This document shows positions 40,349 to 52,685 of a stretch of DNA of 64,000 nucleotides, piece by piece; position 1 is the stretch's first letter, and each line of letters starts with the position of its first letter. A program made the position numbers and the translations under genes. This DNA is from a virus (taxonomy: Duplodnaviria > Caudoviricetes). The notes under the pieces are model-generated. The model was not told the DNA's origin. It did no database searches and saw only the letters and a list, made by a program, of their open reading frames with translations. The stretch is from the IMG/VR virus record IMGVR_UViG_3300021185_003947; one strand, written 5' to 3'.

Positions 40349-40374
40349 AAAGAGCTCTCAGGAGCTCTTTTTTT
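40349..40374 (+). terminator. Intrinsic terminator, probably bidirectional, between convergent genes
   Basis: AAAGAGCTC-TCAG-GAGCTCTTT followed by TTTT; overlaps the stop of the convergent minus-strand gene. Confidence 0.8.
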
Positions 40375-40933
40375 GTTTAATAAAAATATCGACTGGAACA
40401 GCTAGTCTAAGATTAGAGTGATATGTTTTTACTAGATGATAAACATATCCTGGCATAATTATCACATCACTAGTTTTAGGTGCGTACTCAATAGGTTTAA
40501 ACATTTCAGTGGTTTTACCAAAATAACCTCTGTTAGCATTTGCTCTTGGATCGTACGCTACTAGCTCTCCACCTTTATCAATATCATCAGCAAGAACATA
40601 AAATACTGCAGCAAACTGAGCTCCGGAATGATTATGAATATTCATTGAATATCCCTTTTGAGATCCTGTTAACCAAGAACTAAATTCATAAGACATATCG
40701 TTTAAATCACTATTAAATACTTCTTTAAAAAATTCTGAATATTTTTCTATAGCCAAATCTTTTAATAATGGAATTTTATCTGTCAGTGTACCGCTGTCGT
40801 ATTCAGCCTGTGGTTTCATAATATTAGTACTAAGTAAAATCTCTTGAACTAATTCTTCGCATTGGTCTGAAGTAATTTGAGTTTTGTATATTGGTGTGGA
40901 CCAACACTGATTAATACCCGATTTCAACATCAT
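40358..40933 (-). CDS. Putative Fe(II)/2OG oxygenase (TIGR02466/PF13759-like)
   Basis: HNHSG...AVFYV...GGEL...DPR...PGYVYHLV. Confidence 0.8.
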   Translation of the reverse strand: MMLKSGINQCWSTPIYKTQITSDQCEELVQEILLSTNIMKPQAEYDSGTLTDKIPLLKDLAIEKYSEFFKEVFNSDLNDMSYEFSSWLTGSQKGYSMNIHNHSGAQFAAVFYVLADDIDKGGELVAYDPRANANRGYFGKTTEMFKPIEYAPKTSDVIIMPGYVYHLVKTYHSNLRLAVPVDIFIKQKKSS

Positions 40934-41315
40934 AATATCCTTTTATGTCACGAACCATACCATGAATTACCATCAGTGGCCAATCTATATTGTTGAGTAT
41001 ACTATCGTATATTTCTTTACTATTTTTATATGTTTTAAAATATGGATCATTACCAGCTAAAAGCATTGGATCATTTAACAAATCATAAAAATCTTCATTG
41101 AAGTCTTTACTAATCCAATAAGCATAGCATATTGCTACAACATAACTCTTGGCTGGATATAGCCATTCATCTACTTTTTCATTAAAGTGTCGAATAGCAT
41201 TTTTAATAATAACCTCTTGATTATCATCAAAAACTATTTCTACTTTATTTAAATCATCTGTATGATCTTTATTTAATCTATGGTAAACTTCTTGTTTAAC
41301 TTGCCATTCTTTCAT
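40911..41315 (-). CDS. Hypothetical protein of the radical SAM island
   Basis: 134-aa ORF overlapping both neighbours. Confidence 0.8.
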   Translation of the reverse strand: MKEWQVKQEVYHRLNKDHTDDLNKVEIVFDDNQEVIIKNAIRHFNEKVDEWLYPAKSYVVAICYAYWISKDFNEDFYDLLNDPMLLAGNDPYFKTYKNSKEIYDSILNNIDWPLMVIHGMVRDIKGYYDVEIGY

Positions 41316-42204
41316 GATACCAATCCAATAATCCTCTATATCCGTTACAGCTATTATTTAAATCTTTGACATATCGATAATGCTCTGTTAAGCAGTTTCC
41401 AAAATACTTACATGAAGCACATATAGGACTTATCATTTCTTCTTTTTCTTTATTTGTCCAATCAATGTATTGTTCCCAAGAATCCAATTCAAGAAAGAAT
41501 TCTTTATCCTCTTCATCAAATTCCAAGACACCAAATTTGCCAGAAGGAGTGATGTATATATGATCATCCGAAAATGCATTGTATCTTCCTTTCATTGATT
41601 CTATAATTCTGTCTTCATTTACAAATTCAAACTTCATAGTGTCTTTTAATTTAAGCCACTTTATAACAAAATCTTCAAAGTCTTTGTGTGTCACATTGTG
41701 AGCATTTGCTTGATTAATTGAATATGGTTTAATCTCAACAGATGTAATTGACGAACACATATTCAACATATTAATCATTTCAGATACATCTTTTTCTAAC
41801 ACCTTTGGAGAAGCTAAAACCAAAACTGCAATAGGTACTGTACTCATTAACATATTATTAAATACAAGTTCAGACTTTTCTCTTGCTTCAAAATCATATG
41901 AAACAGAAAGATATACATCATCATCAAAAAAGCCTGGATGCATCATAGAATAATTTGTGTTGATGCTAATTTTACCTGAATAGTATTTTTTTATAACATC
42001 TTTAATGCCATAAAAATATGACTTTTTCATTGCGCCAACTTCGCCGCCGTATAAGTCAATATGTTCAATATTATGTACCTGAGATAGCAATATGTCTAGT
42101 TTATTGAACGAAATTTGTTTTTGATCTCCAAGTTGCTTAGTAGATAGGTAACAAAAATCACATCTAAAATTACAAAAATATGAAGGATTGATCGATACGA
42201 TCAT
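41296..42204 (-). CDS. Radical SAM protein with C-terminal Cys cluster (SPASM/twitch-like)
   Basis: CNFRCDFC, YGGE, C-terminal CASCKYFGNC...C. Confidence 0.92.
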   Translation of the reverse strand: MIVSINPSYFCNFRCDFCYLSTKQLGDQKQISFNKLDILLSQVHNIEHIDLYGGEVGAMKKSYFYGIKDVIKKYYSGKISINTNYSMMHPGFFDDDVYLSVSYDFEAREKSELVFNNMLMSTVPIAVLVLASPKVLEKDVSEMINMLNMCSSITSVEIKPYSINQANAHNVTHKDFEDFVIKWLKLKDTMKFEFVNEDRIIESMKGRYNAFSDDHIYITPSGKFGVLEFDEEDKEFFLELDSWEQYIDWTNKEKEEMISPICASCKYFGNCLTEHYRYVKDLNNSCNGYRGLLDWYHERMAS

Positions 42205-42815
42205 TACCTGGCCGGAAAGGAAATATTCATTACTACTGCAAGTCTATCTTCTTCACCATAATAAGGAGTTACTTCATGCCATACATGTGCCGGAACAATA
42301 ATAATTGTATTTTTTTCAGTCTCAATAGACATTTTAGATTTAGGTCTTGTTTTTATAACCTGGTTAAATGCTGGGTCATGAAAAATTAATTTGCCACCAT
42401 CTTTATCATTATCTACACAGTCTAAATAATAAACCGCAACCATTGAAGCACCACTATGACAATGCAAACCTTTATAATCACCATTTCTCATAAAGGGCAA
42501 TCTTCCGGTGGTCAATTCCATCCGTTCTAAAATTTCGGCATGTGTAATTGATTCATCATATTCATTAGCTAGTTTTAAAAATGACTTTGCAAAAAAATCA
42601 TATAAACTTTTTATTTCATTATAATTTTTAATATTATCATCTGTAAATAACGGGATATGCACTCCATCATCTCCACCATCTTGATATGAAAGACCGGCCA
42701 TAGCTAAATGATTTCTAAATATTGCTTGACATACTGAATTAAGTGTACTACTTTCTTCTTCATTAATATCATGCAATTCATGTAACATTTTTATTGGAAA
42801 AATAGTTTTTATCAT
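42204..42815 (-). CDS. Putative Fe(II)/2OG oxygenase (TIGR02466/PF13759-like)
   Basis: HCHSG..VAVYY...GGKLIFHDP...PAHVWHEV...R. Confidence 0.8.
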   Translation of the reverse strand: MIKTIFPIKMLHELHDINEEESSTLNSVCQAIFRNHLAMAGLSYQDGGDDGVHIPLFTDDNIKNYNEIKSLYDFFAKSFLKLANEYDESITHAEILERMELTTGRLPFMRNGDYKGLHCHSGASMVAVYYLDCVDNDKDGGKLIFHDPAFNQVIKTRPKSKMSIETEKNTIIIVPAHVWHEVTPYYGEEDRLAVVMNISFPAR

Positions 42816-43846
42816 GCGTATTCCCTCTCATACGGCGTCAATTGTCTATCGATGCTATTTATACTGATTATATCAGTTGCTAAAGTCTTCATATGTTTAC
42901 AATGATCTTCTACCATATTATGCTGTTTTAAATCTTTAATAGTTTTTTTACATCCATTACAAATTTCAAACATAGGACAAGTATAACATGCATTTTTTAA
43001 ACTCATTAAACTTAAATCTGTTGCAAGAGGTGTTGAAAACCCACCACTCATTTCGTAATCAAAATCAATAGCCTTATCTAAATCATCGCCAAATGCACCA
43101 CATGAATAGTAGTCACCTTCAGGTTGAAGTGTCCGAATGCCAGAATCGCATGTTCTTGTTTGTGGACATATAGTAGATTCTCCTCTTAGTCGTACCATCA
43201 TCTGTTGAGTGTTATGTTCCCAATCGCTTAATCCAGCTTTCCATATTTCAACATAACGTTCATATATTTTCGATAATTGATATGGAGCAGACTGAGAACC
43301 TGATGCCATAGCATAATTTACTTTACAGACTACATCCATTTTCTTTGCAAGTTCAACTGTCTTAATATGAGTATCTTCATTCTCTTCAACAATAACTGCT
43401 ATGAATGAAGGTCTATACCCAACATGTTCAACCATTGCATCTGAACACTTCCAAAAATCTTCTTCTGTAAATTCACTATAATCACCTTTTAATCTCCCTC
43501 CTCCATATTGAAATGATGTAGCTACACCAACTCGAGGATGGTTAAAAAGTTTTTTCCATTTCATTGGTTTCATAAGAAATGGATATAAATTTGTTGTAAG
43601 TGATATTGTTGCAGGCAGCTCATGCTTATCAAGATACTCTATAATTTTCCAATAGTAATTTGGTTTCATCATTAATGGATCGCCACCATTAACAATAATT
43701 GTTTGAGTATCTGGAAAACGTTTTAAAAACTTAAATATTTTATTTAAATCAAGAGTAGCAGTATTATCTTCAAACGTAATTTTAGATGATGAACAAAATG
43801 AACATTTAAAATTACACAATTCTGTTGGTTTGACAATTAGGTCCAT
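42812..43846 (-). CDS. Radical SAM/SPASM protein
   Basis: CNFKCSFC, GGDPL, CPQTRTC...YSC, CYTCPMFEICNGC. Confidence 0.95.
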   Translation of the reverse strand: MDLIVKPTELCNFKCSFCSSSKITFEDNTATLDLNKIFKFLKRFPDTQTIIVNGGDPLMMKPNYYWKIIEYLDKHELPATISLTTNLYPFLMKPMKWKKLFNHPRVGVATSFQYGGGRLKGDYSEFTEEDFWKCSDAMVEHVGYRPSFIAVIVEENEDTHIKTVELAKKMDVVCKVNYAMASGSQSAPYQLSKIYERYVEIWKAGLSDWEHNTQQMMVRLRGESTICPQTRTCDSGIRTLQPEGDYYSCGAFGDDLDKAIDFDYEMSGGFSTPLATDLSLMSLKNACYTCPMFEICNGCKKTIKDLKQHNMVEDHCKHMKTLATDIISINSIDRQLTPYEREYA

Positions 43847-44382
43847 GGCGAATTGCTAACTTTAAACCCAAAATTCATAGTGATTCTGTGCATATCAGGA
43901 TCTCTGAAATGTTCAACTCTGTGTTCGAACTGTTTATCTTGGCTTCCTACTACTACATCATATTTTTGAGGTAAATGAAAGGCTGTGATTCTATTATTTT
44001 GTGATATATTTCTAAACATAATTTCACCACCAGCGTCTTTATTCATATCAGTAAAATATAAAAGAAACATTATATTTGCACCTTCACAAAAATCATTATG
44101 CCAATGACATGAAGTTTGTTCGGTGCCATTCCAACAATGATAATAAATCAAATCTTGTTTTTCTGAATATGGTTTTAAATAATGATTAAAAAGATAATCA
44201 GCAGTCATTAGCATTTTCTTTCGCATACCCAATATATAATAATTTAAAGGAAATCGATAATCTTTTCTATTACCAATACCTCTAAGCCATTTTATATTAG
44301 GAATAGTATCTTCTAAATATTGAAACGCTCGAACGTTATTTTCTGTGTAAAATCCATCATCCATTTTCCAACCATTTTTCAT
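43837..44382 (-). CDS. Fe(II)/2OG oxygenase (prolyl-hydroxylase-like fold)
   Basis: H-N-D (WHND), LLYF, GGEI, distal EHRV and R. Confidence 0.8.
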   Translation of the reverse strand: MKNGWKMDDGFYTENNVRAFQYLEDTIPNIKWLRGIGNRKDYRFPLNYYILGMRKKMLMTADYLFNHYLKPYSEKQDLIYYHCWNGTEQTSCHWHNDFCEGANIMFLLYFTDMNKDAGGEIMFRNISQNNRITAFHLPQKYDVVVGSQDKQFEHRVEHFRDPDMHRITMNFGFKVSNSPWT

Positions 44383-45524
44383 AGCATTTTTACCTTTTGT
44401 CTAAATCCATATGATAAATCATCTTCACCATCACGTTTTGGTTTAAATCCCTTTGTTTTTTTAACGTAGTTAAACGTTTCTTTAAAAACACATTCTTCCA
44501 TATCATTGTGATCACCTGGCATATCAGCTTTTACAAAGCATGTGAATGGACAGTTTTCATAATATTCACACTCAAAACAATTATATTTTTTTAAAAACTT
44601 TTCTACCATCTCTCCTGTTTCAAATAGTGTTTCACCAGTTTTTTTATCTCGCTGATATGCTACACCACAACATCCACCGGGTGATGAACCATCAGGTTGA
44701 ATAGTTATTGAATTACCTCTTGTGCACATCATTGCACCAGTTTGATTCAATGGATCATGAAATGCATCCATATTTTCGCACTCAGGATAGTTATCTACTA
44801 AATATTTATTGAATGCTAATAACTCACTGTCTTTAGGAATTAATTTTGCATCTGCTTTAATTAATGGCGATGGCATATAAGCATCAAAATCAACTGGGAA
44901 GTTTTTATACAAATAATCAAAAGTGCTTTTATCGTTACTTTTTATAATTGTTTGTACATTTTGGCTAGTAGTAACAATTGAAACGTTTCTAATATAATCT
45001 TTAAAAGTCTCAACATTTTCTAAGAATATTTCTAGTTGACCTTTGTTAAATCTACCTCTTGGATCATAAGAAGTTGAAAGCTTTACATCGTGCTTATTAC
45101 AAAAGTCCATAACCTTATCTGAATTTTTTTTGTCAAACATAAAATTAGTAAGATAATTAAAATAAATTCTTTTGTCACCAATGTTAATCTTGGATTTGAC
45201 TAAGTCCATAAATTCTTCATATACATCTAAAAAGCCTTTTTCAATCCATAGATCTTCAAATAATTCTCCACCTAATAGATGTAATTTATAGTCTTTTGAT
45301 CTTGGCGAATTGTTAATAAATTTAGCAACAGTATCGCTTTTTGCTAAAATTTCTTCTCGAGTAGCTCCAACCATTGAGTTATGATCTTGTGGACAAAACA
45401 CACATTTTAAATTACAATGTTCAAAGAATATTATAACAAGTTCACTTGATCGAGTAATCTTGCTTCCTAAGATTTTGTATATATCAAAATCAAGTGGAGC
45501 TGGATTAATAGGTGCTACAGACAT
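44379..45524 (-). CDS. Radical SAM/SPASM-like protein
   Basis: CNLKCVFC, LGGE, CTRG...GCC, CFECEYYENCPFTC. Confidence 0.92.
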   Translation of the reverse strand: MSVAPINPAPLDFDIYKILGSKITRSSELVIIFFEHCNLKCVFCPQDHNSMVGATREEILAKSDTVAKFINNSPRSKDYKLHLLGGELFEDLWIEKGFLDVYEEFMDLVKSKINIGDKRIYFNYLTNFMFDKKNSDKVMDFCNKHDVKLSTSYDPRGRFNKGQLEIFLENVETFKDYIRNVSIVTTSQNVQTIIKSNDKSTFDYLYKNFPVDFDAYMPSPLIKADAKLIPKDSELLAFNKYLVDNYPECENMDAFHDPLNQTGAMMCTRGNSITIQPDGSSPGGCCGVAYQRDKKTGETLFETGEMVEKFLKKYNCFECEYYENCPFTCFVKADMPGDHNDMEECVFKETFNYVKKTKGFKPKRDGEDDLSYGFRQKVKML

Positions 45525-47185
45525 TCTTTACTTACCTCTGACATAATTATATGTCTATTTTTTTCTATAAATTTATTTATAGTATTTGCTCTAAACTCTT
45601 GATTTAAAACTTTAATGCTTTTTGGTTGAGAATTTGGATTAAATATATCTCTTATTTCAGAATGTATATCATCCCATCTATCTAATTTACTTATAGCTTC
45701 ATATGCTTTTTTAGTAAAGACTGATGGCGATATGCTATTTTCAAGCATAGGATAAAAGTGCTGCAATAAATAATTTCCAGCACTATTCATAAACCACATT
45801 TCATGCATTTCTTCAATTGTAAACGAAAAGCACGATGATATTGTTTTGAAATACGATTTTTTATTTTTGTACAAATTATTCCAGCTATCAATTCCCTGTT
45901 CATCCGCAATATCAGTATAAACTTCAACTGTTCGAATATCATATTTAATTTTATATTCCTGAGAATTAAGCGCTGAATCCGGAAGAAACATATAATCATG
46001 TCTATAAGAACCAAACGATTTAAAATTCCAGATATATTCCATTTCATTATAAAAGTCTTCTATTGTAGAACCTGGCATTGCAAGGATCATTTCTAAATTA
46101 GGTATCGGAAACCCATGCTTTGAACATTGCTCATTAATGTGTTTACTTAATTTTAATTTATCTTCTGTATTTAAATCAACTCTTTCAGCTATTTTCATTG
46201 CAATGTCAGAACTGCTTTGAATAGACACTGATGGAACTATCGATATATTGGCCATCTCACTCCACATATCTTTTCCATTTTTCATATTTGGAGAAGTGTA
46301 ATTTGTTCCAACAATTTCAAAATACTTATCAATTAATTTTTTTCTTCTATTTAAATCCTTAGATTTCATGGTAGAAATATCAGTTAAATTAAAACCATTT
46401 GTCCAAGCATATTCGAATATTTCAAAGTCTCTTTCAAAAAAAGCTCCAAAGTTTGCATCATTTAAATAAGCAGATCTATAACCGGCTTTTAGCATAGCAT
46501 TGATATCACGTTTTACTATGTCCAAGGATTTCTTATAAATCTTTGTATTAATACCTCCACCCCATTCGCAAAATACACACTTATAAGGACAACCTCTTGT
46601 TGTCTCTAAAACAATAAACGGTTCCATTTTATTATTACGAGCGTATTTAAGTAATTTTGTAAGATATTCTAAATGATCTTCGTATACTGAATAATCTTCT
46701 TTTGATAAATCATGTATGAATTTTACATCAGATCTTAATTCCCATGGAATACTTGTTGGATCTATTCTGTTTTCAATAAACTGATCGATAAGCTCAGCCA
46801 TAAATGGCTCACCTGGTTTAGTAGGTCTACAAATTAAATCATACTGAGGACGTGATGCTAATAGTTCTGGTTCATTGGTTCCAATATGTGGACCACCTAA
46901 AACTAGTATTTTTTCTGGATATTTATTTTTAATTTTATTAGAAATTTCATCACATATCATATAGTTCCAAGTATAAGAAGAAAACATAATTATATCTGCT
47001 TCAATTATATCATTTATTACTTCATCATAAGATTTATAGCTATTCCATTTATATGGTGATTCTAACCACTTTACTTTTTTACTGTATTTGCCAAAACGAG
47101 AATAGTAACTTTGCATTAATAAAAATGTAAAGTTATTTGCTAGTGACCAGTCAGCGTGAGGAGGATTAATAAATGCTATAATCAT
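45515..47185 (-). CDS. Cobalamin-binding radical SAM protein (class B methyltransferase-like)
   Basis: N-terminal Rossmann-like FSSYTWN...LGGPH, ETTRGCPYKCVFCEWG, DANFG. Confidence 0.88.
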   Translation of the reverse strand: MIIAFINPPHADWSLANNFTFLLMQSYYSRFGKYSKKVKWLESPYKWNSYKSYDEVINDIIEADIIMFSSYTWNYMICDEISNKIKNKYPEKILVLGGPHIGTNEPELLASRPQYDLICRPTKPGEPFMAELIDQFIENRIDPTSIPWELRSDVKFIHDLSKEDYSVYEDHLEYLTKLLKYARNNKMEPFIVLETTRGCPYKCVFCEWGGGINTKIYKKSLDIVKRDINAMLKAGYRSAYLNDANFGAFFERDFEIFEYAWTNGFNLTDISTMKSKDLNRRKKLIDKYFEIVGTNYTSPNMKNGKDMWSEMANISIVPSVSIQSSSDIAMKIAERVDLNTEDKLKLSKHINEQCSKHGFPIPNLEMILAMPGSTIEDFYNEMEYIWNFKSFGSYRHDYMFLPDSALNSQEYKIKYDIRTVEVYTDIADEQGIDSWNNLYKNKKSYFKTISSCFSFTIEEMHEMWFMNSAGNYLLQHFYPMLENSISPSVFTKKAYEAISKLDRWDDIHSEIRDIFNPNSQPKSIKVLNQEFRANTINKFIEKNRHIIMSEVSKECL

Positions 47186-47218: not shown

Positions 47219-48349
47219 TTAAACTGTTACATATTTAGCAATAGTTGTTTTATCAGAAACAGAATTAGCATCTAGTAGCGAATGAATTAAATAATGATTT
47301 ACAGTTTCAAGTTCTAATGCAAAGAATTTTTCAGGTTCTTTATCATCTGATGATTCAATTAAAATAAGCTTATCTAATAGTTCATCTGTTAATTCAGTAT
47401 TAATTGCTGGTAAGAATTCTAATATGCTATCATCTCTTAAAGTAAAATCAGACCATTGACTTTCTATAATAGCTACAAACTCTTTAATAGTATTAAGATC
47501 TGAATCAGAAATATTTTCGAATATTACATTATCACTACTAGAAGCGCCACTTAGATATTTTATAGACCACATATCGTCTTTAATAAACAGTTGAGCAAAT
47601 TTAGAAGTATCTGTAAAAATGTCATTAATATTATTTAATGTGTAAGTTTTGTCTAAATTTAATTTATTAGCAAAAGATTTAGTTAAGAAATGTTGAAAAA
47701 ATATTTCTTTTAATTCGTAAAGATATTGTTCAAACACTTTTTTCAGCAAAGGTTTAACTACACCTTTTAACTCTGCTTTTGAAGATTTGTCATTAAGATA
47801 ATTTGCTAGTAGATGTTCAACACTTATTGTGCTTTTATATTTTACCATAAACGCTTTTTTCTTGGCGGCTGAAGGGGCTTTAACACTATCATAAATGGTA
47901 TTGAAATTTTCTACTTTTAAAATTTCACCAGATCCTAATTTTGCATTATTACTTGAAAACCTGCCTCTAAAAAATGTATTAAATTTAAAAGCATGTGCTT
48001 TTACTAATGATTCTACTGAATCAGCTTTCGGAGTTTTTAAAATAAATTTATACCAAGTAGACATAATAAATTGAAATGCTGCACTATCGCAATAAACAAC
48101 GATTCTTTTATTTGTAGAATCACATTTGGCAGCTAATTCATCAAAAAGAGTTGTAGCATCTTTAAACGTTTTATCTTTTCCTAGAATATCATTCCATTCA
48201 AGTCCATATGCAATGAGTTGACCAGATAATATTTTTTGAAGATCTTCTAAAAGATTAAAACCGTTACTTTGCGATACAACAATACGATCAAAATTTGGAT
48301 CGATGATATTATCTGTTGTTACATAAATCTTCTTAAACAGATGTATCAT
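47219..48349 (-). CDS. Hypothetical protein of the radical SAM island
   Basis: 376-aa ORF coupled to the upstream gene; no family recognised. Confidence 0.85.
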   Translation of the reverse strand: MIHLFKKIYVTTDNIIDPNFDRIVVSQSNGFNLLEDLQKILSGQLIAYGLEWNDILGKDKTFKDATTLFDELAAKCDSTNKRIVVYCDSAAFQFIMSTWYKFILKTPKADSVESLVKAHAFKFNTFFRGRFSSNNAKLGSGEILKVENFNTIYDSVKAPSAAKKKAFMVKYKSTISVEHLLANYLNDKSSKAELKGVVKPLLKKVFEQYLYELKEIFFQHFLTKSFANKLNLDKTYTLNNINDIFTDTSKFAQLFIKDDMWSIKYLSGASSSDNVIFENISDSDLNTIKEFVAIIESQWSDFTLRDDSILEFLPAINTELTDELLDKLILIESSDDKEPEKFFALELETVNHYLIHSLLDANSVSDKTTIAKYVTV

Positions 48350-48993
48350 AACTGTTCTCCTGTGGCGATTGAACTTGTTAGTAAAAACATTGGGTTATTA
48401 ACATTCGCCCAATAACTAAATAGATTATTTCCTTTAAACATATACTCATTAAAATATGATTTATAATATGTTTTATGATGTTCAATTACATTGGCATAAA
48501 ATAAATAAAAGCTTTCGTATTTAAGTAAATTTACAAAATTTATTCCAGTTAAATCTTTTGTATCATCTTCTGGAAATGATTTAACGTAGTCTTTTAATTC
48601 ATCACATTCAACAGTGTACAAATTATAAAGCGAAAGTGAATCTAATTTCTTAGCCCAAGTAGTAAGTATTTCAACGTTATCATCAATAAAATCTTTTTCT
48701 ATTAACTCACTAATACCTTTCATCTGCAATAATAAACTAATTACTCTTTCTTCAAGAATAGGAATACTTATAATAAAATTAGCTAAAAGATATTCTCTAG
48801 TAAGATCATCAAAATCTTTCTGATCAGTAAAACCAATATTGCATGGCAATTCCAGATTACTGAGATATGTTAATAGCTTTGTTCCCTGCAATTGTGAATT
48901 TTCATAATCAACCATATAAAAAGTTTGATCATCTTCAAAATACAATTTCAAATCTTCAATACTAAATGGTGCAGTAACATCAATAACTTTCAT
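48346..48993 (-). CDS. Hypothetical protein of the radical SAM island
   Basis: Likely start MKVIDV at 48993, forming an ATGA overlap with the stop of the CHxS-repeat gene. Confidence 0.8.
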   Translation of the reverse strand: MKVIDVTAPFSIEDLKLYFEDDQTFYMVDYENSQLQGTKLLTYLSNLELPCNIGFTDQKDFDDLTREYLLANFIISIPILEERVISLLLQMKGISELIEKDFIDDNVEILTTWAKKLDSLSLYNLYTVECDELKDYVKSFPEDDTKDLTGINFVNLLKYESFYLFYANVIEHHKTYYKSYFNEYMFKGNNLFSYWANVNNPMFLLTSSIATGEQL

Positions 48994-49553
48994 CTTCTTC
49001 CTCTCGAGCCATGACAACTGCTATGACAACTTGCATGACAAATATTAATATTTACAGTAACAGTATTGGAAACTAAACTATTAAAACGGGTCTGTAAGTC
49101 TGTAAATTTAGCTTCAAGACCAGAAGCACTAATTTGAGTACCAGCAGTTAAAGTAACTCCAGCCGCAGATAATGTTTGTGCATAACTACTGTTTAAATAA
49201 GCTTTTCGTGTTTGATTAAAAATTTGTCCAGGATTAGGATATGTTCCTGTATTACCACCAGGGCCTGTTACTGTTCGGGTTGCCTTTAAATTTCTAATTT
49301 GACTATACGCCGCGGTTTCATTTTCAATTGCAGTATTGATAACAGAAGCAGTGATTGGATTTTGATTTATATCGGCTCCAGTAATTCCAATGCTCCGACC
49401 AGCAGTCGTTCCACCAAAATATGATGTAGAAAATCCACTAAACGGAACTGAATTAGTACCCCAAACAATACCAGAGTTTGCACTTGCCGGTGCAAAATCC
49501 GCAAATCTATCTATTATATTCTGTGCGCTAATTGGACTTGTTAGTGTAGCCAT
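48990..49553 (-). CDS. Putative modification target/precursor: T/S/A/G/N-rich protein ending CHASCHSSCHGSRGRR
   Basis: All three Cys and all three His lie in the last 16 residues; own late promoter; GAGG RBS; surrounded by radical SAM genes. Confidence 0.75.
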   Translation of the reverse strand: MATLTSPISAQNIIDRFADFAPASANSGIVWGTNSVPFSGFSTSYFGGTTAGRSIGITGADINQNPITASVINTAIENETAAYSQIRNLKATRTVTGPGGNTGTYPNPGQIFNQTRKAYLNSSYAQTLSAAGVTLTAGTQISASGLEAKFTDLQTRFNSLVSNTVTVNINICHASCHSSCHGSRGRR

Positions 49554-49579
49554 TTCATTCCTCTTTTGTTATATACGTG

Positions 49580-49587
49580 TATTTATA
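49580..49587 (-). promoter_or_regulatory. T4 late promoter TATAAATA driving the CHxS-repeat gene
   Basis: Exact consensus overlapping the stop codon of the upstream radical SAM gene. Confidence 0.8.
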
Positions 49588-50602
49588 CATGTTTTGCGAG
49601 TTCCATCATTAAACTTTTTGGTGCACCACAAATATCTCCATCCCATCCTAATTGATGACAATCACCTCCACAAAATCTAGATACAGGGCAAGATAAACAA
49701 TTAGGATTACGCATTTTTTCTTCTAATATAGTACGAATTCTTTTTGGACTTTTTAACAATGTATCAATTGAATCGTCTAAACTTCCAAAGGCTTGTTCTG
49801 GCGCGCTGTTTGGACATCCTGCAATAGTACCATTGCCGTTTATTGTAAATAGCTTTTGTTCACAATCTCTACAAAAAGTTCCACATGTAGTCATAGTCTT
49901 TTCAAACTTAGCATATACATTTTCTAGAAAGTCGTTTTCAAACCAATCTCGTGCTCCGTGCTCTTCACTTTGCATGTGCATTTTTAAAAAATATTCATCA
50001 AGTTCTTTATTGCTTGGAAATATTTCTGATGCTTCTCGGGCACTACCATTATTAGTTAGTCTTTCCAGTGAAACTTCTTGCACACCAAGTCGGCGGCACC
50101 ATCTTAATAATACTATGGGATCTTTTGCAAGCGTATCTTTTGTAAGACTAATAAACAAACGAATAGTAACACCATCTGCCAAAAGTGTTTTAACATTTTT
50201 ATGCCAAAGATTATATTGGTTTTTATTTTCAAATCGAATCTTACGATCCCACGATGTGCCAAGTCTATTTCCAAGAGGACCTTTAATAAAATCCATATGC
50301 TGATCTTTTAATTTAAAAACTAAATTAGTTGTGGCACCCCACGACATTTGATCCCATAAACCATCACATGCATCATATACCTTTCGCATTTGGCCAACCG
50401 GCACAAGAAACGGTTCACCGCCATGAAATTCCATATGTATAGAATCTTGTGCTGCAGGTTTTTCTTTTCTAAATCTATGAATCCAGTCAACTAGCTTATC
50501 AGTATTCCAATAAATCTTTTGACCACTTCTTCCGCTTGTAAAACAATGCGCACAATTAAGCTGACATGTTTCTGTTGTTTTGAGATACATCAGCCAGTTC
50601 AT
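49583..50602 (-). CDS. Radical SAM/SPASM peptide-maturase-like protein
   Basis: CQLNCAHC, FHGGEP, CGTFCRDC...GCPN, CLSCPVSRFCGGDC...C. Confidence 0.95.
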   Translation of the reverse strand: MNWLMYLKTTETCQLNCAHCFTSGRSGQKIYWNTDKLVDWIHRFRKEKPAAQDSIHMEFHGGEPFLVPVGQMRKVYDACDGLWDQMSWGATTNLVFKLKDQHMDFIKGPLGNRLGTSWDRKIRFENKNQYNLWHKNVKTLLADGVTIRLFISLTKDTLAKDPIVLLRWCRRLGVQEVSLERLTNNGSAREASEIFPSNKELDEYFLKMHMQSEEHGARDWFENDFLENVYAKFEKTMTTCGTFCRDCEQKLFTINGNGTIAGCPNSAPEQAFGSLDDSIDTLLKSPKRIRTILEEKMRNPNCLSCPVSRFCGGDCHQLGWDGDICGAPKSLMMELAKHV

Positions 50603-51083
50603 TATTAATTTTATCCTCTGTATAATTTTCTAAACCAAAGCTTAAAGTTAATGCTTCATCTTTATTTAATGCTTGATGAGGCGTATAAGCTGGTATATGT
50701 ATATATTCTCCTTGAATAATAGTCACTGGCTTATCATCAATTATTAAAGACTTAGATCCTTCACAGCAATATATAACAACATCATCTGGATCGGTATGCA
50801 TATCAAAAGAATAAGACCCAGCCATTGCAAAAAATAAATGACATGTAACATGTTGTTCATGTTTCCAATCAGTTTTTATTTTCCAACAATATTCATATAT
50901 TGTTGAATTAAAGTTTTCCATACGTTCGATTTTTATAGAATGGTTTTGTTTTTGTACTTTACAAAAATCACTGAAACTAGTAATTAGCTGTTCACGACCC
51001 TGTTCATCTATAGCATAAACCATATTTTGTTCATACATATGATTTGCAGTAAGTGCAGATATGAGTTGAGATTTATTAATCAT
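50556..51083 (-). CDS. JmjC/cupin-4-like Fe(II)/2OG oxygenase
   Basis: SFDMHTDPDDV...EGSK...YIHIPAYTPHQA (HxD...H triad). Confidence 0.82.
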   Translation of the reverse strand: MINKSQLISALTANHMYEQNMVYAIDEQGREQLITSFSDFCKVQKQNHSIKIERMENFNSTIYEYCWKIKTDWKHEQHVTCHLFFAMAGSYSFDMHTDPDDVVIYCCEGSKSLIIDDKPVTIIQGEYIHIPAYTPHQALNKDEALTLSFGLENYTEDKINNELADVSQNNRNMSA

Positions 51084-51125: not shown

Positions 51126-52685
51126 TTACACTTTAAGGACACATTCTATCAATTTTTCTTCATCTACAGTAGACGATTCTAAAGCTACACCTACCATCAT
51201 AGCTCCATTAAATTCTTTACTTGCTCGGCCATTATGGTGTGTATATACTGGATCACCTTTATGAACTCCACCAACAACCCTTACTGGAACTCTTCCTTTA
51301 AGACCTAAAGCTTGACCAGGAGCGTCTGCATTCATTAAATAAGCAGGTTGAGCTGAAATTACGCCGACTGGAATTCCACTTGATGTGCAAGGAGTAGTTT
51401 CTTCAGTTTTATTAAATGACGCCATCATTACTGTTCCAACTGGATGCTCTTCGCTTGTAGTATATTTTTCTGCAAGGTCAGCATAATTTGCAGTTGCAGC
51501 ATTACCAGCAATTGTACCGGAAGATAATGTTTGTGTTGATGGATTATACATTAAATGTCCATCATCAGTATCAATATAAGGTCTTTGATAACCTGTGCCA
51601 TTATTATCGCTAAATAATACTTGGTAATTTACATCGTCATTTTTTTCATCAACTTTTACAAAATCAGCTTCGCCTCCAGAAACTGTACAAGCGCCAGTAT
51701 TTGCCATTGTAACATGACCAGATAATGCTGCAGTAGTAAAACCTGAGCCATTACCAATTAGAATTTGTGTGTCTGCTACTGTAATATCTGAAGGATCTGC
51801 TGCTGAAGAACTATTTCCAACTTTTACTGAATTTGCTGGCATATTGGCAAGCTTATCATTAGTCACAGCATCATCAGTTATTTGACCTGTTATTACTTGC
51901 CCTGCCTGAATACCTCCAGATGCTTGGCGACCAATTACAGTATTAGTTCCTGCTTGTACAGAGCCAATATCACCAGCAGCTGATCTACCAATAACTGAAT
52001 GATCTGGTATTGCTAAATCTCCTGGATCACCACTAGTACCTGCCTGGCGAGTTTTTATTGTATATCCTGCCATATTAGCAAGCTTAGCATTAGTTACTTG
52101 ATCATCTGATATCATATCAGTTTGAATTTGCACTTCTTCAATTGTTCCAGAATCTGTTTTACCAAGCACTCTATTTGCAGTTACGATGTCTTGCATTTTA
52201 TCATAGGTTACAACATCAGGCTGAATTGTGACCACGCCAGCATTTGTCATAAGAACATCTTGAGATAAAGCGGTAGATGTAAAACCAGTTCCATTACCAA
52301 TTAAAATTTGCTCGTTAGTAACTGCCTTATTTGATGATGCTCCAGTAGTTCCGGCATCTCTTACCTTAACAGTATTTGCTGGCATATCTTCTAATTTAAG
52401 ACCAGATGCTTCTTGAGTTAAACCGTGACCACCCGCTACTGAAAATGTTCCACTTGAATCTCCAGTAAGGTTTCCATTAACACTAGTTTTTAAAATTCCA
52501 TTTCCTGCATTATAGTTTCTTCGCACAGCTTTACTAAAATTTAAGGCTTTTACTATATTTGAATCATGGCCAGCATAGTCACTACTAAGATCATCTAGAT
52601 CACCGATGTGAGCAGCAATATTATTAGATTTTACTCTAAAAGTGTTAATTGTATCACTTAAATTTATAACTGTCTGTCTAGCCAT
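51126..52685 (-). CDS. Tail fibre/spike protein with C-terminal chaperone-like domain
   Basis: N-terminal DTINTFRVKSN adaptor, VTxxKL/M repeats, C-terminal YADLAEKY...GLKGRVPVRV. Confidence 0.7.
   Translation of the reverse strand: MARQTVINLSDTINTFRVKSNNIAAHIGDLDDLSSDYAGHDSNIVKALNFSKAVRRNYNAGNGILKTSVNGNLTGDSSGTFSVAGGHGLTQEASGLKLEDMPANTVKVRDAGTTGASSNKAVTNEQILIGNGTGFTSTALSQDVLMTNAGVVTIQPDVVTYDKMQDIVTANRVLGKTDSGTIEEVQIQTDMISDDQVTNAKLANMAGYTIKTRQAGTSGDPGDLAIPDHSVIGRSAAGDIGSVQAGTNTVIGRQASGGIQAGQVITGQITDDAVTNDKLANMPANSVKVGNSSSAADPSDITVADTQILIGNGSGFTTAALSGHVTMANTGACTVSGGEADFVKVDEKNDDVNYQVLFSDNNGTGYQRPYIDTDDGHLMYNPSTQTLSSGTIAGNAATANYADLAEKYTTSEEHPVGTVMMASFNKTEETTPCTSSGIPVGVISAQPAYLMNADAPGQALGLKGRVPVRVVGGVHKGDPVYTHHNGRASKEFNGAMMVGVALESSTVDEEKLIECVLKV

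Follow-up and report, generated by a model that had tools for sequence, protein, structure and literature searches.

The modification of ribosomally made proteins by radical S-adenosylmethionine (rSAM) enzymes is already known and takes several forms. anSME, one of the minimal SPASM enzymes, oxidises a Cys or Ser residue located inside an intact protein, PapB-like enzymes introduce one small thioether ring per repeat, and in the QhpC/QhpD system a SPASM rSAM enzyme installs several Cys thioethers in the γ subunit of quinohemoprotein amine dehydrogenase. In the aromatic-X-X motif of triceptides the ring is joined to the β-carbon of the +2 residue, and DynA joins His to the residue two positions later. 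In the HXS antiphage system (Nat Commun 2026) the HxsA protein is matured by the rSAM enzymes HxsB and HxsC, with HxsD, and the modification of HxsA (+8 Da) maps to one HxS-type motif, SHRSS (PMC13128918). Here we analyse the TAIL gene (product P0001), found in a 64,000-nucleotide stretch of the virus record IMGVR_UViG_3300021185_003947 (Duplodnaviria; Caudoviricetes), the whole of which we call the window. The gene lies on the minus strand at 48990..49553, within a cassette of rSAM and oxygenase genes headed by a fibre gene, and encodes 187 amino acids (aa), i.e. a body predicted to be globular α/β and a (CHxS)3-RGRR tail.

In marine myophages and jumbo phages, rSAM cassettes have repeatedly been noticed in regions devoted to host recognition and left unexplained (PMC7029224, PMC5332604, PMC8066314, PMC5468394, PMC11898562, PMC8541153), and in the papers on RSL2-like phage, Atu_ph07, pPa_SNUABM_DT01 and pelagimyophages the rSAM, cupin and 2-oxoglutarate (2OG) oxygenase genes figure as annotations only. 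Our literature search found no paper that describes the tail or the cassette or connects them with fibres. TAIL provides a concrete candidate substrate for such cassettes, with a sharp motif and a fibre-first gene order. On balance we consider it probable, if far from assured, that the cassette enzymes act on the tail and that the protein, once modified, remains intact and becomes part of the periphery of the fibre or baseplate.

Results

A conserved tail on variable bodies

The initial annotation had placed a 187-aa open reading frame (ORF) at 48990-49553; these coordinates are right, with the qualification that the frame is open on the minus strand only, the plus-strand reading being filled with stop codons. 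In the minus-strand translation residues 1-171 contain neither Cys nor His and consist to 55% of Thr, Ser, Ala, Gly and Asn, and the end reads CHAS-CHSS-CHGS-RGRR with a period of four residues, both as annotated. The tail core comprises the 16 codons of C172-R187 (48993..49040, minus strand) and is followed by the stop codon at 48990-48992; the last 16 residues of TAIL are CHASCHSSCHGSRGRR, and the C-terminal end of P0001 reads NICHASCHSSCHGSRGRR. The DNA pattern for three C-H-x-x repeats is present in one copy in the window and in 0 of 100 dinucleotide-preserving shuffles, and neither a C-H-x-x repeat nor an RxRR C-terminus was found in any other real ORF of the window. Two further interpretations of the motif were dropped, that of a heme CXXXCH motif because no cassette member suggests heme attachment, and that of a C-terminal sorting signal because a hydrophobic segment is absent.

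A word-indexed search yielded 396 homologues of P0001 (~187-201 aa, 50-97% identity); the 120 of these that were listed all end in C-[HNQ]-x-x-C-H-x-x-C-[HP]-x-x-R-x-R-R, three of them departing from C-H. HMMER, run exhaustively against 1.84 billion cluster representatives (E<=1e-3), gave 279 clusters, defined at 50% identity, with sequence identities down to ~28%. Across these clusters, the tails of which were inspected in 150 representatives, the consensus of three [VI]-C-H-x-[SN] repeats followed by R-x-R-R-COOH is near invariant, and the identity of the bodies is only ~30-50%. In an alignment of 87 sequences C172, H173, C180, H181, R184, R186 and R187 are invariant, S175, C176 and H177 are conserved to at least 90%, and the Ser at the fourth position of the tail repeats is conserved to 80-94%. 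The initial annotation had raised the question whether the tail stays constant on a varying body, and this alignment answers it in the affirmative, the mean frequency of the most common residue being 0.86 in the tail vs 0.44 in the body.

When viral contigs were scanned with nothing but the back-translated tail, at least 120 contigs with at least 143 tailed ORFs were obtained. In these ORFs Arg is encoded variously by AGA, CGT, CGC, AGG and CGA, Cys by TGT or TGC, His by CAT or CAC, and the conserved Ser by both AGY and TCN. Since synonymous codons vary freely, selection acts on the amino acids and not on an overlapping ribosome-binding site (RBS). Such an overlap does exist in the window: as the initial annotation had rightly cautioned, the RGRR codons AGA GGA AGA AGA form the Shine-Dalgarno sequence of the downstream gene, which encodes a phrog_20767 protein. 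Moreover, the TGA stop codon of TAIL and the ATG of this gene (48993) overlap as ATGA, and the two genes are translationally coupled. In pPa_SNUABM_DT01, RSL2 and Atu_ph07 the downstream gene begins ~10-13 nucleotides past the stop codon of the tail gene, without overlap.

Body families and predicted structure

BLAST clustering of the bodies resulted in several families that carry the same tail and cannot be linked to one another by this method. One large family includes the window protein and the protein of Pseudomonas phage pPa_SNUABM_DT01, a second consists of bodies of 124-140 aa that usually occur as two adjacent paralogues, and further groups are the Ralstonia RSL2 type and two types of 247-309 aa that form a tandem pair; the singletons include the 296-aa protein of Agrobacterium phage Atu_ph07. 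In profile comparisons the part common to different families is limited to the last 55-118 columns, i.e. a helix, a β-strand and the tail, and the Atu_ph07 homologue and the window protein align over the C-terminal ~72 columns only. The bodies may be very distant relatives, given a predicted-structure match in BFVD to the 296-aa Atu_ph07 protein (template modelling (TM) score 0.53), and it is the C-terminal module that is the truly conserved unit.

The 124-140 aa tandem family is present at L003:2523-3286, L056:6046-6857, L090:4689-5452 and in ~20 further viral loci, where the pairs sit directly after a fibre gene and before a set of rSAM genes of their own. This pairing of paralogues suggests a hetero-oligomer. 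No match to the family was found among cultured phages, and megablast and tblastn searches of the window cassette and P0001 against cultured phages likewise gave no match. Rare variants of the tail have four repeats, carry one more Gly ahead of RxRR, replace C-H by C-Y, or have lost RxRR; variants were noted in P0271, where C-Y substitutes for C-H in all three repeats, at L035:1204-1977, in L153 and L161, and in L152. The latter, on a contig assigned to Dysosmobacter segnis, has a doubled module, CHxSCHxSCHSNVV followed by CHxSCHxSCHxARGRR. In the metagenomic protein P0169 (453 aa) an N-terminal Gly_rich_2 domain (PF21722) is naturally fused to a tailed body.

The AlphaFold2 (AF2) model of P0001, based on the 87-sequence alignment, is a compact α/β domain (pLDDT 90.3, pTM 0.82) with helices at residues 10-26, 69-85 and 143-161 and strands at residues 86-96, 109-120 and 164-172. 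A fibre-like body, as proposed from composition in the initial annotation, is not what the model predicts. The last ~15-16 residues are modelled at low confidence (55-61), and a tail of this kind on a folded body is the usual appearance of an accessible enzyme substrate. A two-copy complex prediction of P0001 scored 0.00 and has no bearing on self-association either way. A Foldseek search of the PDB with the body gave no hit at E<=0.001 (matches had E>1), the best VIA-align match among 48,161 chains had a Z of 4.2 and a root-mean-square deviation of 6.7 over 135 residues, the AFDB clusters contained only two members of the protein's own family, and TM scores in the ESM Atlas were <=0.30. In BFVD the matches were family members and 500-660 aa proteins of one uncultured myovirus, Myoviridae sp. 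ctijX18. These proteins (A0A8S5USJ7, A0A8S5USJ8 and A0A8S5USV2; 504-660 aa) match the body weakly (E 5e-4 to 1e-2) and, as far as predicted structures can tell, may be fusions or paralogues of the TAIL body fold.

The tail gene lies in a recurrent rSAM cassette

The synteny counts given in the following refer to the viral loci listed, which were chosen by the tail pattern alone. The recurrent viral gene order is cupin, rSAM, TAIL, phrog_20767, a 376-aa protein that is not always present, three rSAM genes, phrog_20737 and 2OG oxygenase. An adjacent rSAM gene of the 339-aa type is present in 90/120 loci, phrog_20767 in 87/120, the cupin and the second rSAM gene (381 aa) in 64/120 each, the 376-aa protein in 38/120 and a B12-binding rSAM gene in 12/120. 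The association of the tail with rSAM/SPASM genes, on which the initial annotation had relied, is found nearly always: 104 of 118 loci have a same-strand rSAM-like ORF within 3 kb of the tail gene, and the 14 that lack one at this distance are mostly short or end near the tail gene. The 124-140 aa tandem family has its own variant of the cassette, with two TAIL genes followed by an rSAM gene, two genes without assigned function and three or four further rSAM genes. The same cassette as in the window is found in pPa_SNUABM_DT01, in the RSL2/RSF1/FLC/SURPRISE13 group and in Atu_ph07, and Sinorhizobium phage Phosso also encodes a phrog_20767 homologue.

A protein with a C-terminal domain of the intramolecular-chaperone (IMC) type is encoded upstream of TAIL on the same strand in 64/120 loci, where it abuts TAIL or has only the cupin and rSAM genes between itself and TAIL. 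The remainder of this fibre protein varies in length between loci, from a few hundred to >2800 aa. Because the IMC-domain fibre protein recurs upstream of TAIL, the cassette unit begins with the fibre gene.

A tailed homologue in virions of Agrobacterium phage Atu_ph07

The tailed homologue of Atu_ph07, AUZ94952.1 (296 aa, tail FCHSSCHASCHNSRSRR), has a computed mass of 31.89 kDa, and its neighbours AUZ94958 and AUZ94959 have computed masses of 66.07 and 21.66 kDa. These values equal exactly those of gp170, gp176 and gp177 in Table S5 of Attai et al. 2018 (PMC6102473), and the three exact matches anchor the gene numbering. In purified virions 8 unique peptides of gp170 were identified, which cover 35% of it; after boiling in sodium dodecyl sulfate (SDS) gp170 was present in gel bands 1-9 with its peak in band 1, i.e. 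at the top, most other proteins of 29-34 kDa peaking in bands 7-8 (PMC6102473). According to these data one tailed homologue is a virion protein, which fits the earlier supposition that the whole protein is kept in the virion instead of being cleaved, and the migration hints at a very stable, possibly covalent, high-molecular-weight form of gp170 in virions. None of the other Atu_ph07 cassette proteins for which masses were computed, including the rSAM, the cupin and the phrog_20767 homologue, appears in Table S5.

Just upstream of the Atu_ph07 cassette (seen via L123) lies gp180 (MF403008.1, 127978-141327), a giant T4-like structural protein. gp180 is not among the rows of Table S5 covered here, in which gp177 is followed by gp181 and the 31.9-kDa tailed protein peaks in the top band. 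For pPa_SNUABM_DT01 and RSL2/RSF1 no proteomics was found in the literature searched.

The cassette in predatory Bdellovibrionota

In 185,579 species-representative genomes the tail pattern was found at 47 loci, ~40 of which have a real tailed ORF. Going by record title, more than half of the loci (27/47) belong to Bdellovibrionota, namely to Bacteriovoracaceae, Halobacteriovoraceae, Pseudobdellovibrionaceae and Bdellovibrio, and several of these lie on contigs of 1.3-2.8 Mb and have the same cassette. In two of these genomes the cassette is flanked by genes for a helicase, transporters, acyl-CoA dehydrogenase, serine dehydratase, YchF and a penicillin-binding protein; as these are housekeeping genes, the cassette does not resemble a prophage. 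One of the two has, next to the cassette, a 413-aa protein with a fibre-typical endosialidase-chaperone (Peptidase_S74) domain, and the second has a 2355-aa Big_2/RCC1 protein there. The task that phages and these predators have in common is gripping the surface of another bacterium. The remaining genome matches look like phage contigs binned into metagenome-assembled genomes (MAGs) or chance matches without an ORF. As examples of the positions, the cassette of the Halobacteriovoraceae MAG G003:C1 (1.29-Mb contig) is located at L176:9765-19475 and L177:1-3785, and that of Bacteriovoracaceae G002:C2 (2.84-Mb contig) at L174:5856-19758.

Genes and signals of the cassette in the window

The window is the structural region of a marine T4-like myovirus, with baseplate wedge genes and ORFs of 4423, 1754 and 1732 aa; its gp6-like protein is nearest to those of phage C48C1 (40% identity), Pelagibacter phage HTVC008M (33%) and Methylophilales phage Melnitz (32%). 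All cassette genes are on the minus strand and are given here in the order of transcription. The cassette is headed by a fibre protein of 519 aa (51126..52685; phrog_22593 and phrog_19602, tail fibre), the last ~140 aa of which (51126-51548) match the Peptidase_G2 IMC autoproteolytic domain marginally (1.1e-5, 25.5 bits vs a cutoff of 25). It is followed by a cupin/JmjC-like Fe(II) oxygenase of 175 aa (50556..51083; Cupin_2 4.4e-8, JmjC_2 3.2e-7) and, directly upstream of TAIL, by an rSAM/SPASM enzyme of 339 aa (49583..50602; phrog_1802 3.8e-58). Downstream of TAIL is the phrog_20767 gene (48346..48993; 215 aa from the ATG at 48993; 7.6e-54), whose product is modelled by AF2 with a pLDDT of 95.7 and has no match in PDB or AFDB outside its own family, the best VIA-align Z being 4.8 over 57 residues. 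The frequent 376-aa cassette member (47219..48349) is an ORF without a match in Pfam, PHROG or NCBIfam, and an Atlas feature search gave no usable lead for either of these two proteins.

The next gene encodes an optional B12-binding rSAM enzyme (45515..47185; class B, methyltransferase-like) with B12-binding and Radical_SAM domains and a match to the KedN5 family at 1.8e-23. Then come an rSAM enzyme of 381 aa with a Cys-rich C-terminus (44379..45524; phrog_1802 2.3e-30, Fer4_12), a 181-aa phrog_19592 protein (43837..44382) with, judged by eye, a possible cupin/2OG-like HxD motif, and an rSAM/SPASM enzyme of 344 aa (42812..43846; Radical_SAM 3.8e-9, phrog_1802 1.9e-55) that matches DynA at 1.1e-13 and the SPASM domain only weakly, below the cutoff (21.8 vs 27 bits). 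The last four genes encode a 2OG-Fe(II) oxygenase of 203 aa (42204..42815; 2OG-FeII_Oxy_5 6.6e-10), an rSAM enzyme of 302 aa (41296..42204; phrog_1802 4.7e-29), the recurrent phrog_20737 protein of 134 aa (40911..41315) and a 2OG-Fe(II) oxygenase of 191 aa that closes the cassette (40358..40933; phrog_81, 2OG-FeII_Oxy_5 2.9e-9).

TAIL has a strong Shine-Dalgarno sequence, AAGAGGAA (49558..49565, minus strand), and a T4-type late-promoter-like box, TATAAATA (49580..49587, minus strand), which is located 26 nucleotides 5' of the TAIL ATG and overlaps the stop codon of the upstream rSAM gene. With 14 copies in the window vs 14.8 expected by chance this box is not enriched. Thirteen of the 14 copies are on the coding strand, most of these within ~70 nucleotides 5' of gene starts, and the sites include 5061, 14741, 16199, 24011, 38978, 39651, 49580 and 63262. 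Strand and position of the boxes fit T4-type late promoters, but, as their total number equals chance, this is suggestive only.

The enzymes of the cassette

Family membership of the enzymes was judged by NCBIfam bit scores vs the curated cutoffs. All cassette enzymes stay below the curated scores that define the maturases of the HXS, triceptide, ranthipeptide and CXXX-repeat families, so that the kinship with known rSAM-associated substrate families to which the initial annotation had pointed does not extend to membership. The SPASM domain of the adjacent 339-aa rSAM enzyme (TIGR04085) scores 35.3 bits, above the cutoff of 27, and the enzyme has weak full-length resemblances to DynA, anSME, PapB and CbpB, all far below their cutoffs. 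A profile of 22 of its orthologues has its closest PDB match, over the full length, in anSME (4K36/4K37; E 4.4e-12), and single-sequence PDB searches with three of the cassette rSAM enzymes gave no match. P0001 itself has no NCBIfam match at E<=0.01, the HxsA family TIGR03979 included. The sequences are compatible with thioether or other cross-links of Cys, with His-to-Ser cyclophanes and with formylglycine-type oxidation. The adjacent rSAM/SPASM enzyme is the one most tightly linked to TAIL and most likely the one that would modify the tail.

Discussion

The TAIL product is probably a late-expressed accessory protein of the host-recognition (fibre/baseplate) module. According to alignments and model it would combine a fast-evolving compact α/β body with a conserved C-terminal helix and β-strand and a flexible 16-residue tail, (C-H-x-S)3-R-x-R-R-COOH. 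We propose that the anSME-like rSAM/SPASM enzyme encoded just upstream probably acts first, on the Cys and perhaps on the His or Ser side chains of the tail, and that it may introduce thioether or other cross-links or carry out a formylglycine-type oxidation. The other rSAM enzymes, the optional B12-binding rSAM enzyme, the cupin and the 2OG oxygenases might then add cross-links, methyl groups or hydroxyl groups. The body would not be removed, and the whole modified protein would be built into the particle together with the fibre from the head of the cassette, where the modified cationic tail could attach it very stably, possibly covalently, or act as a rigid tip for binding. The modification of the tail, the order of the enzymes and their division of labour, and the purpose of the modification are what we infer.

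Several points weigh against this scheme. A modified tail has never been observed by anyone. All cassette enzymes score far below every curated family cutoff, and their chemistry can therefore not be read from homology. Nine to 11 enzymes look excessive for a 16-residue core, and part of this set may have the fibre or further virion proteins as substrates. In Table S5 of PMC6102473, gp321 and gp616 (~32-36 kDa) also peak in band 1; as at least two proteins of similar size do so, the peak of gp170 is no proof of a covalent linkage, and its migration could be that of a non-covalent SDS-resistant oligomer or of an aggregate. The study names neither the peptides found nor an open-modification search. 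In the Bdellovibrionota homologues no N-terminal signal peptide is visible by eye. Finally, the Cys3His3 tail could simply bind metal.

A bolder form of the proposal is that a dedicated rSAM/oxygenase machine, common to unrelated myovirus lineages and Bdellovibrionota, turns a portable 16-residue tag into a cross-link or reactive anchor that welds a variable accessory protein onto the prey-recognition fibre; we advance it tentatively, as a possibility with the odds against it. If it is true, this would be a new enzymatic, non-isopeptide mode of covalent virion or adhesin assembly and would provide a ready-made protein-ligation tag. As a function, the fixing of a fibre accessory by enzymes stands a fair chance of being new in kind.

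The strongest alternative, which we nevertheless regard as rather unlikely, is that the tail remains unmodified and serves as a Cys3His3 metal clasp (Zn, Fe, Cu or Fe-S) that stabilises an oligomer or a fibre joint, the enzymes acting elsewhere; perhaps the ligands are shared between subunits, or the tailed protein is an enzyme scaffold or an Fe-S or electron donor. It is established that His-metal sites are used in T4 fibres. Cys and His of the tail are invariant and would be placed on one face of a helix by the four-residue period, the enzymes far outnumber the apparent need of a 16-residue core, and a metal-bridged oligomer could also migrate slowly in SDS polyacrylamide gel electrophoresis. 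However, the Ser at the fourth position (80-94%) and the C-terminal R-x-R-R are equally conserved although metal binding does not need them, the tail is modelled at low confidence and is not packed into the fold, and the rare P0271 variant with CY for CH keeps an aromatic ring and not a typical ligand pair. Additionally, the TAIL gene is translationally coupled within the enzyme block, which also speaks for the tail as a substrate.

Much less probable is a classical peptide made by ribosomes and modified after translation (RiPP), in which the 171-residue body would be a cleaved structured leader of the nitrile-hydratase type and the modified 16-mer, once released, would target the host or competing organisms. 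A body at the N-terminus with a repeat core at the C-terminus, beside SPASM rSAM enzymes, is indeed a RiPP layout, and long protein-like leaders are known (PMC12537861). Nevertheless, Pfam, PHROG and NCBIfam revealed neither a protease nor an exporter family among the cassette proteins, and fibre genes are the regular company of the cassette. In RiPPs the leader is as a rule the element that is conserved for recognition, yet in the tailed proteins it is the body, in its several families, that varies, and not the core. Moreover, the virion peptides in Table S5 cover 35% of the 296 aa of gp170, a coverage that requires most of them to come from outside the 16-residue tail. That the tail owes its conservation to nucleotide constraint on an RBS, to a low-complexity artefact or to chance is practically negligible, for although the RGRR codons in the window do hold the Shine-Dalgarno sequence of the downstream gene, codon usage is mixed at every conserved position, by which we count the artefact as refuted, stop and start do not overlap in pPa_SNUABM_DT01, RSL2 and Atu_ph07, and the triple C-H-x-x pattern is absent from all 100 shuffles.

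The tail system is widespread, with 279 clusters and at least 120 viral contigs in addition to the predatory bacteria, and its cultivable carriers include phages of Agrobacterium, Ralstonia/Burkholderia, Pseudomonas and Sinorhizobium. As it is present in cultivable phages and predatory bacteria, it lends itself to direct experimental tests. Should the tail prove to be modified, RiPP-type chemistry would extend to structural proteins of viruses and predators, new chemistry for the cross-linking of Cys, His or Ser could emerge, and the fixing or tuning of fibre accessories for prey recognition might be explained.

Comparison with known systems

Among known systems the fibre tips of T4 (His-x-His in gp37 and gp12) resemble TAIL in being host-recognition proteins with repeated His near the C-terminus. 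gp37 and gp12 are, however, trimeric and β-helical with buried His-metal sites, whereas the TAIL body is predicted to be globular, its tail is modelled at low confidence and the motif additionally contains Cys, Ser and RxRR. QhpC/QhpD provides a precedent for a modified protein that stays as a subunit of a larger assembly; the match to QhpD amounts to 25 bits vs a cutoff of 453, and fold, motif (Cys to Asp/Glu) and biology are unrelated.

The three H-x-S units of TAIL fit the aromatic-X-X motif of triceptides, with Y-x-x in rare variants, and DynA, of the dynobactin/darobactin (DynA/DarE) type, is the top NCBIfam match of two cassette rSAM enzymes in full-length alignments. Yet these score 45-51 bits vs a cutoff of 450, the scores for maturases of the GrrM/OscB, FxsB, YhhB, AmcB or Xye type are 15-28 bits vs 310-445, and the substrates of triceptide and dynobactin enzymes are, unlike TAIL, short secreted peptides without invariant Cys. 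With ranthipeptides, sactipeptides and CXXX-repeat or Cys-every-fifth peptides (PapB/PapA, SCIFF, TIGR04115, CefB) TAIL shares a C-terminal Cys core of fixed period beside SPASM rSAM enzymes, including the SPASM domain of the adjacent enzyme (TIGR04085, 35.3 bits). It differs in that the PapB score is 40.5 bits vs 340, CteB (5WGG) covers only the N-terminal ~100 residues, TAIL has no Asp/Glu acceptor and its 170-residue folded body is apparently retained. The C-X-X-X period also recalls the CXXX-repeat peptides, but the match to their maturase (TIGR04115) reaches 37.4 bits vs 350 and is confined to residues 8-66.

anSME and the adjacent enzyme are both minimal rSAM/SPASM proteins of ~340-370 aa, and in the last TAIL repeat, C-H-x-S-R, Cys and Arg are spaced as in the sulfatase motif. 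Nevertheless, the adjacent enzyme scores 42.3 bits vs the TIGR03942 cutoff of 349, and TAIL departs from the motif C/S-x-P/A-x-R, position 3 of the last repeat being G, S, T or N; Ala occurs there in 5 of the 143 tails listed and Pro in none of them. Moreover, the first two repeats run into Cys and not into Arg, and a sulfatase domain is absent.

The nearest described system in logic is the HXS defence system. Like TAIL, HxsA is a whole protein with His-x-Ser repeats, rich in basic residues and served by at least two rSAM maturases (PMC13128918), and TAIL has tandem H-x-S units (H-A-S, H-S-S and H-G-S). In TAIL, however, an invariant Cys precedes each H-x-S, the period is four and there are three repeats vs five in HxsA. 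The TAIL repeat is at the extreme C-terminus, ends in RxRR and occurs in phages and predatory bacteria in the context of fibre modules. The cassette enzymes match HxsB with 33.8 and 23.9 bits vs a cutoff of 370 and HxsC with 28.8 vs 267.9, and there is no match to HxsD among ten cassette proteins. Thus, TAIL agrees with the HXS family in the bare H-x-S repeat alone, and the two systems are alike in their logic, i.e. a whole protein with His-x-Ser repeats that is encoded together with several rSAM enzymes.

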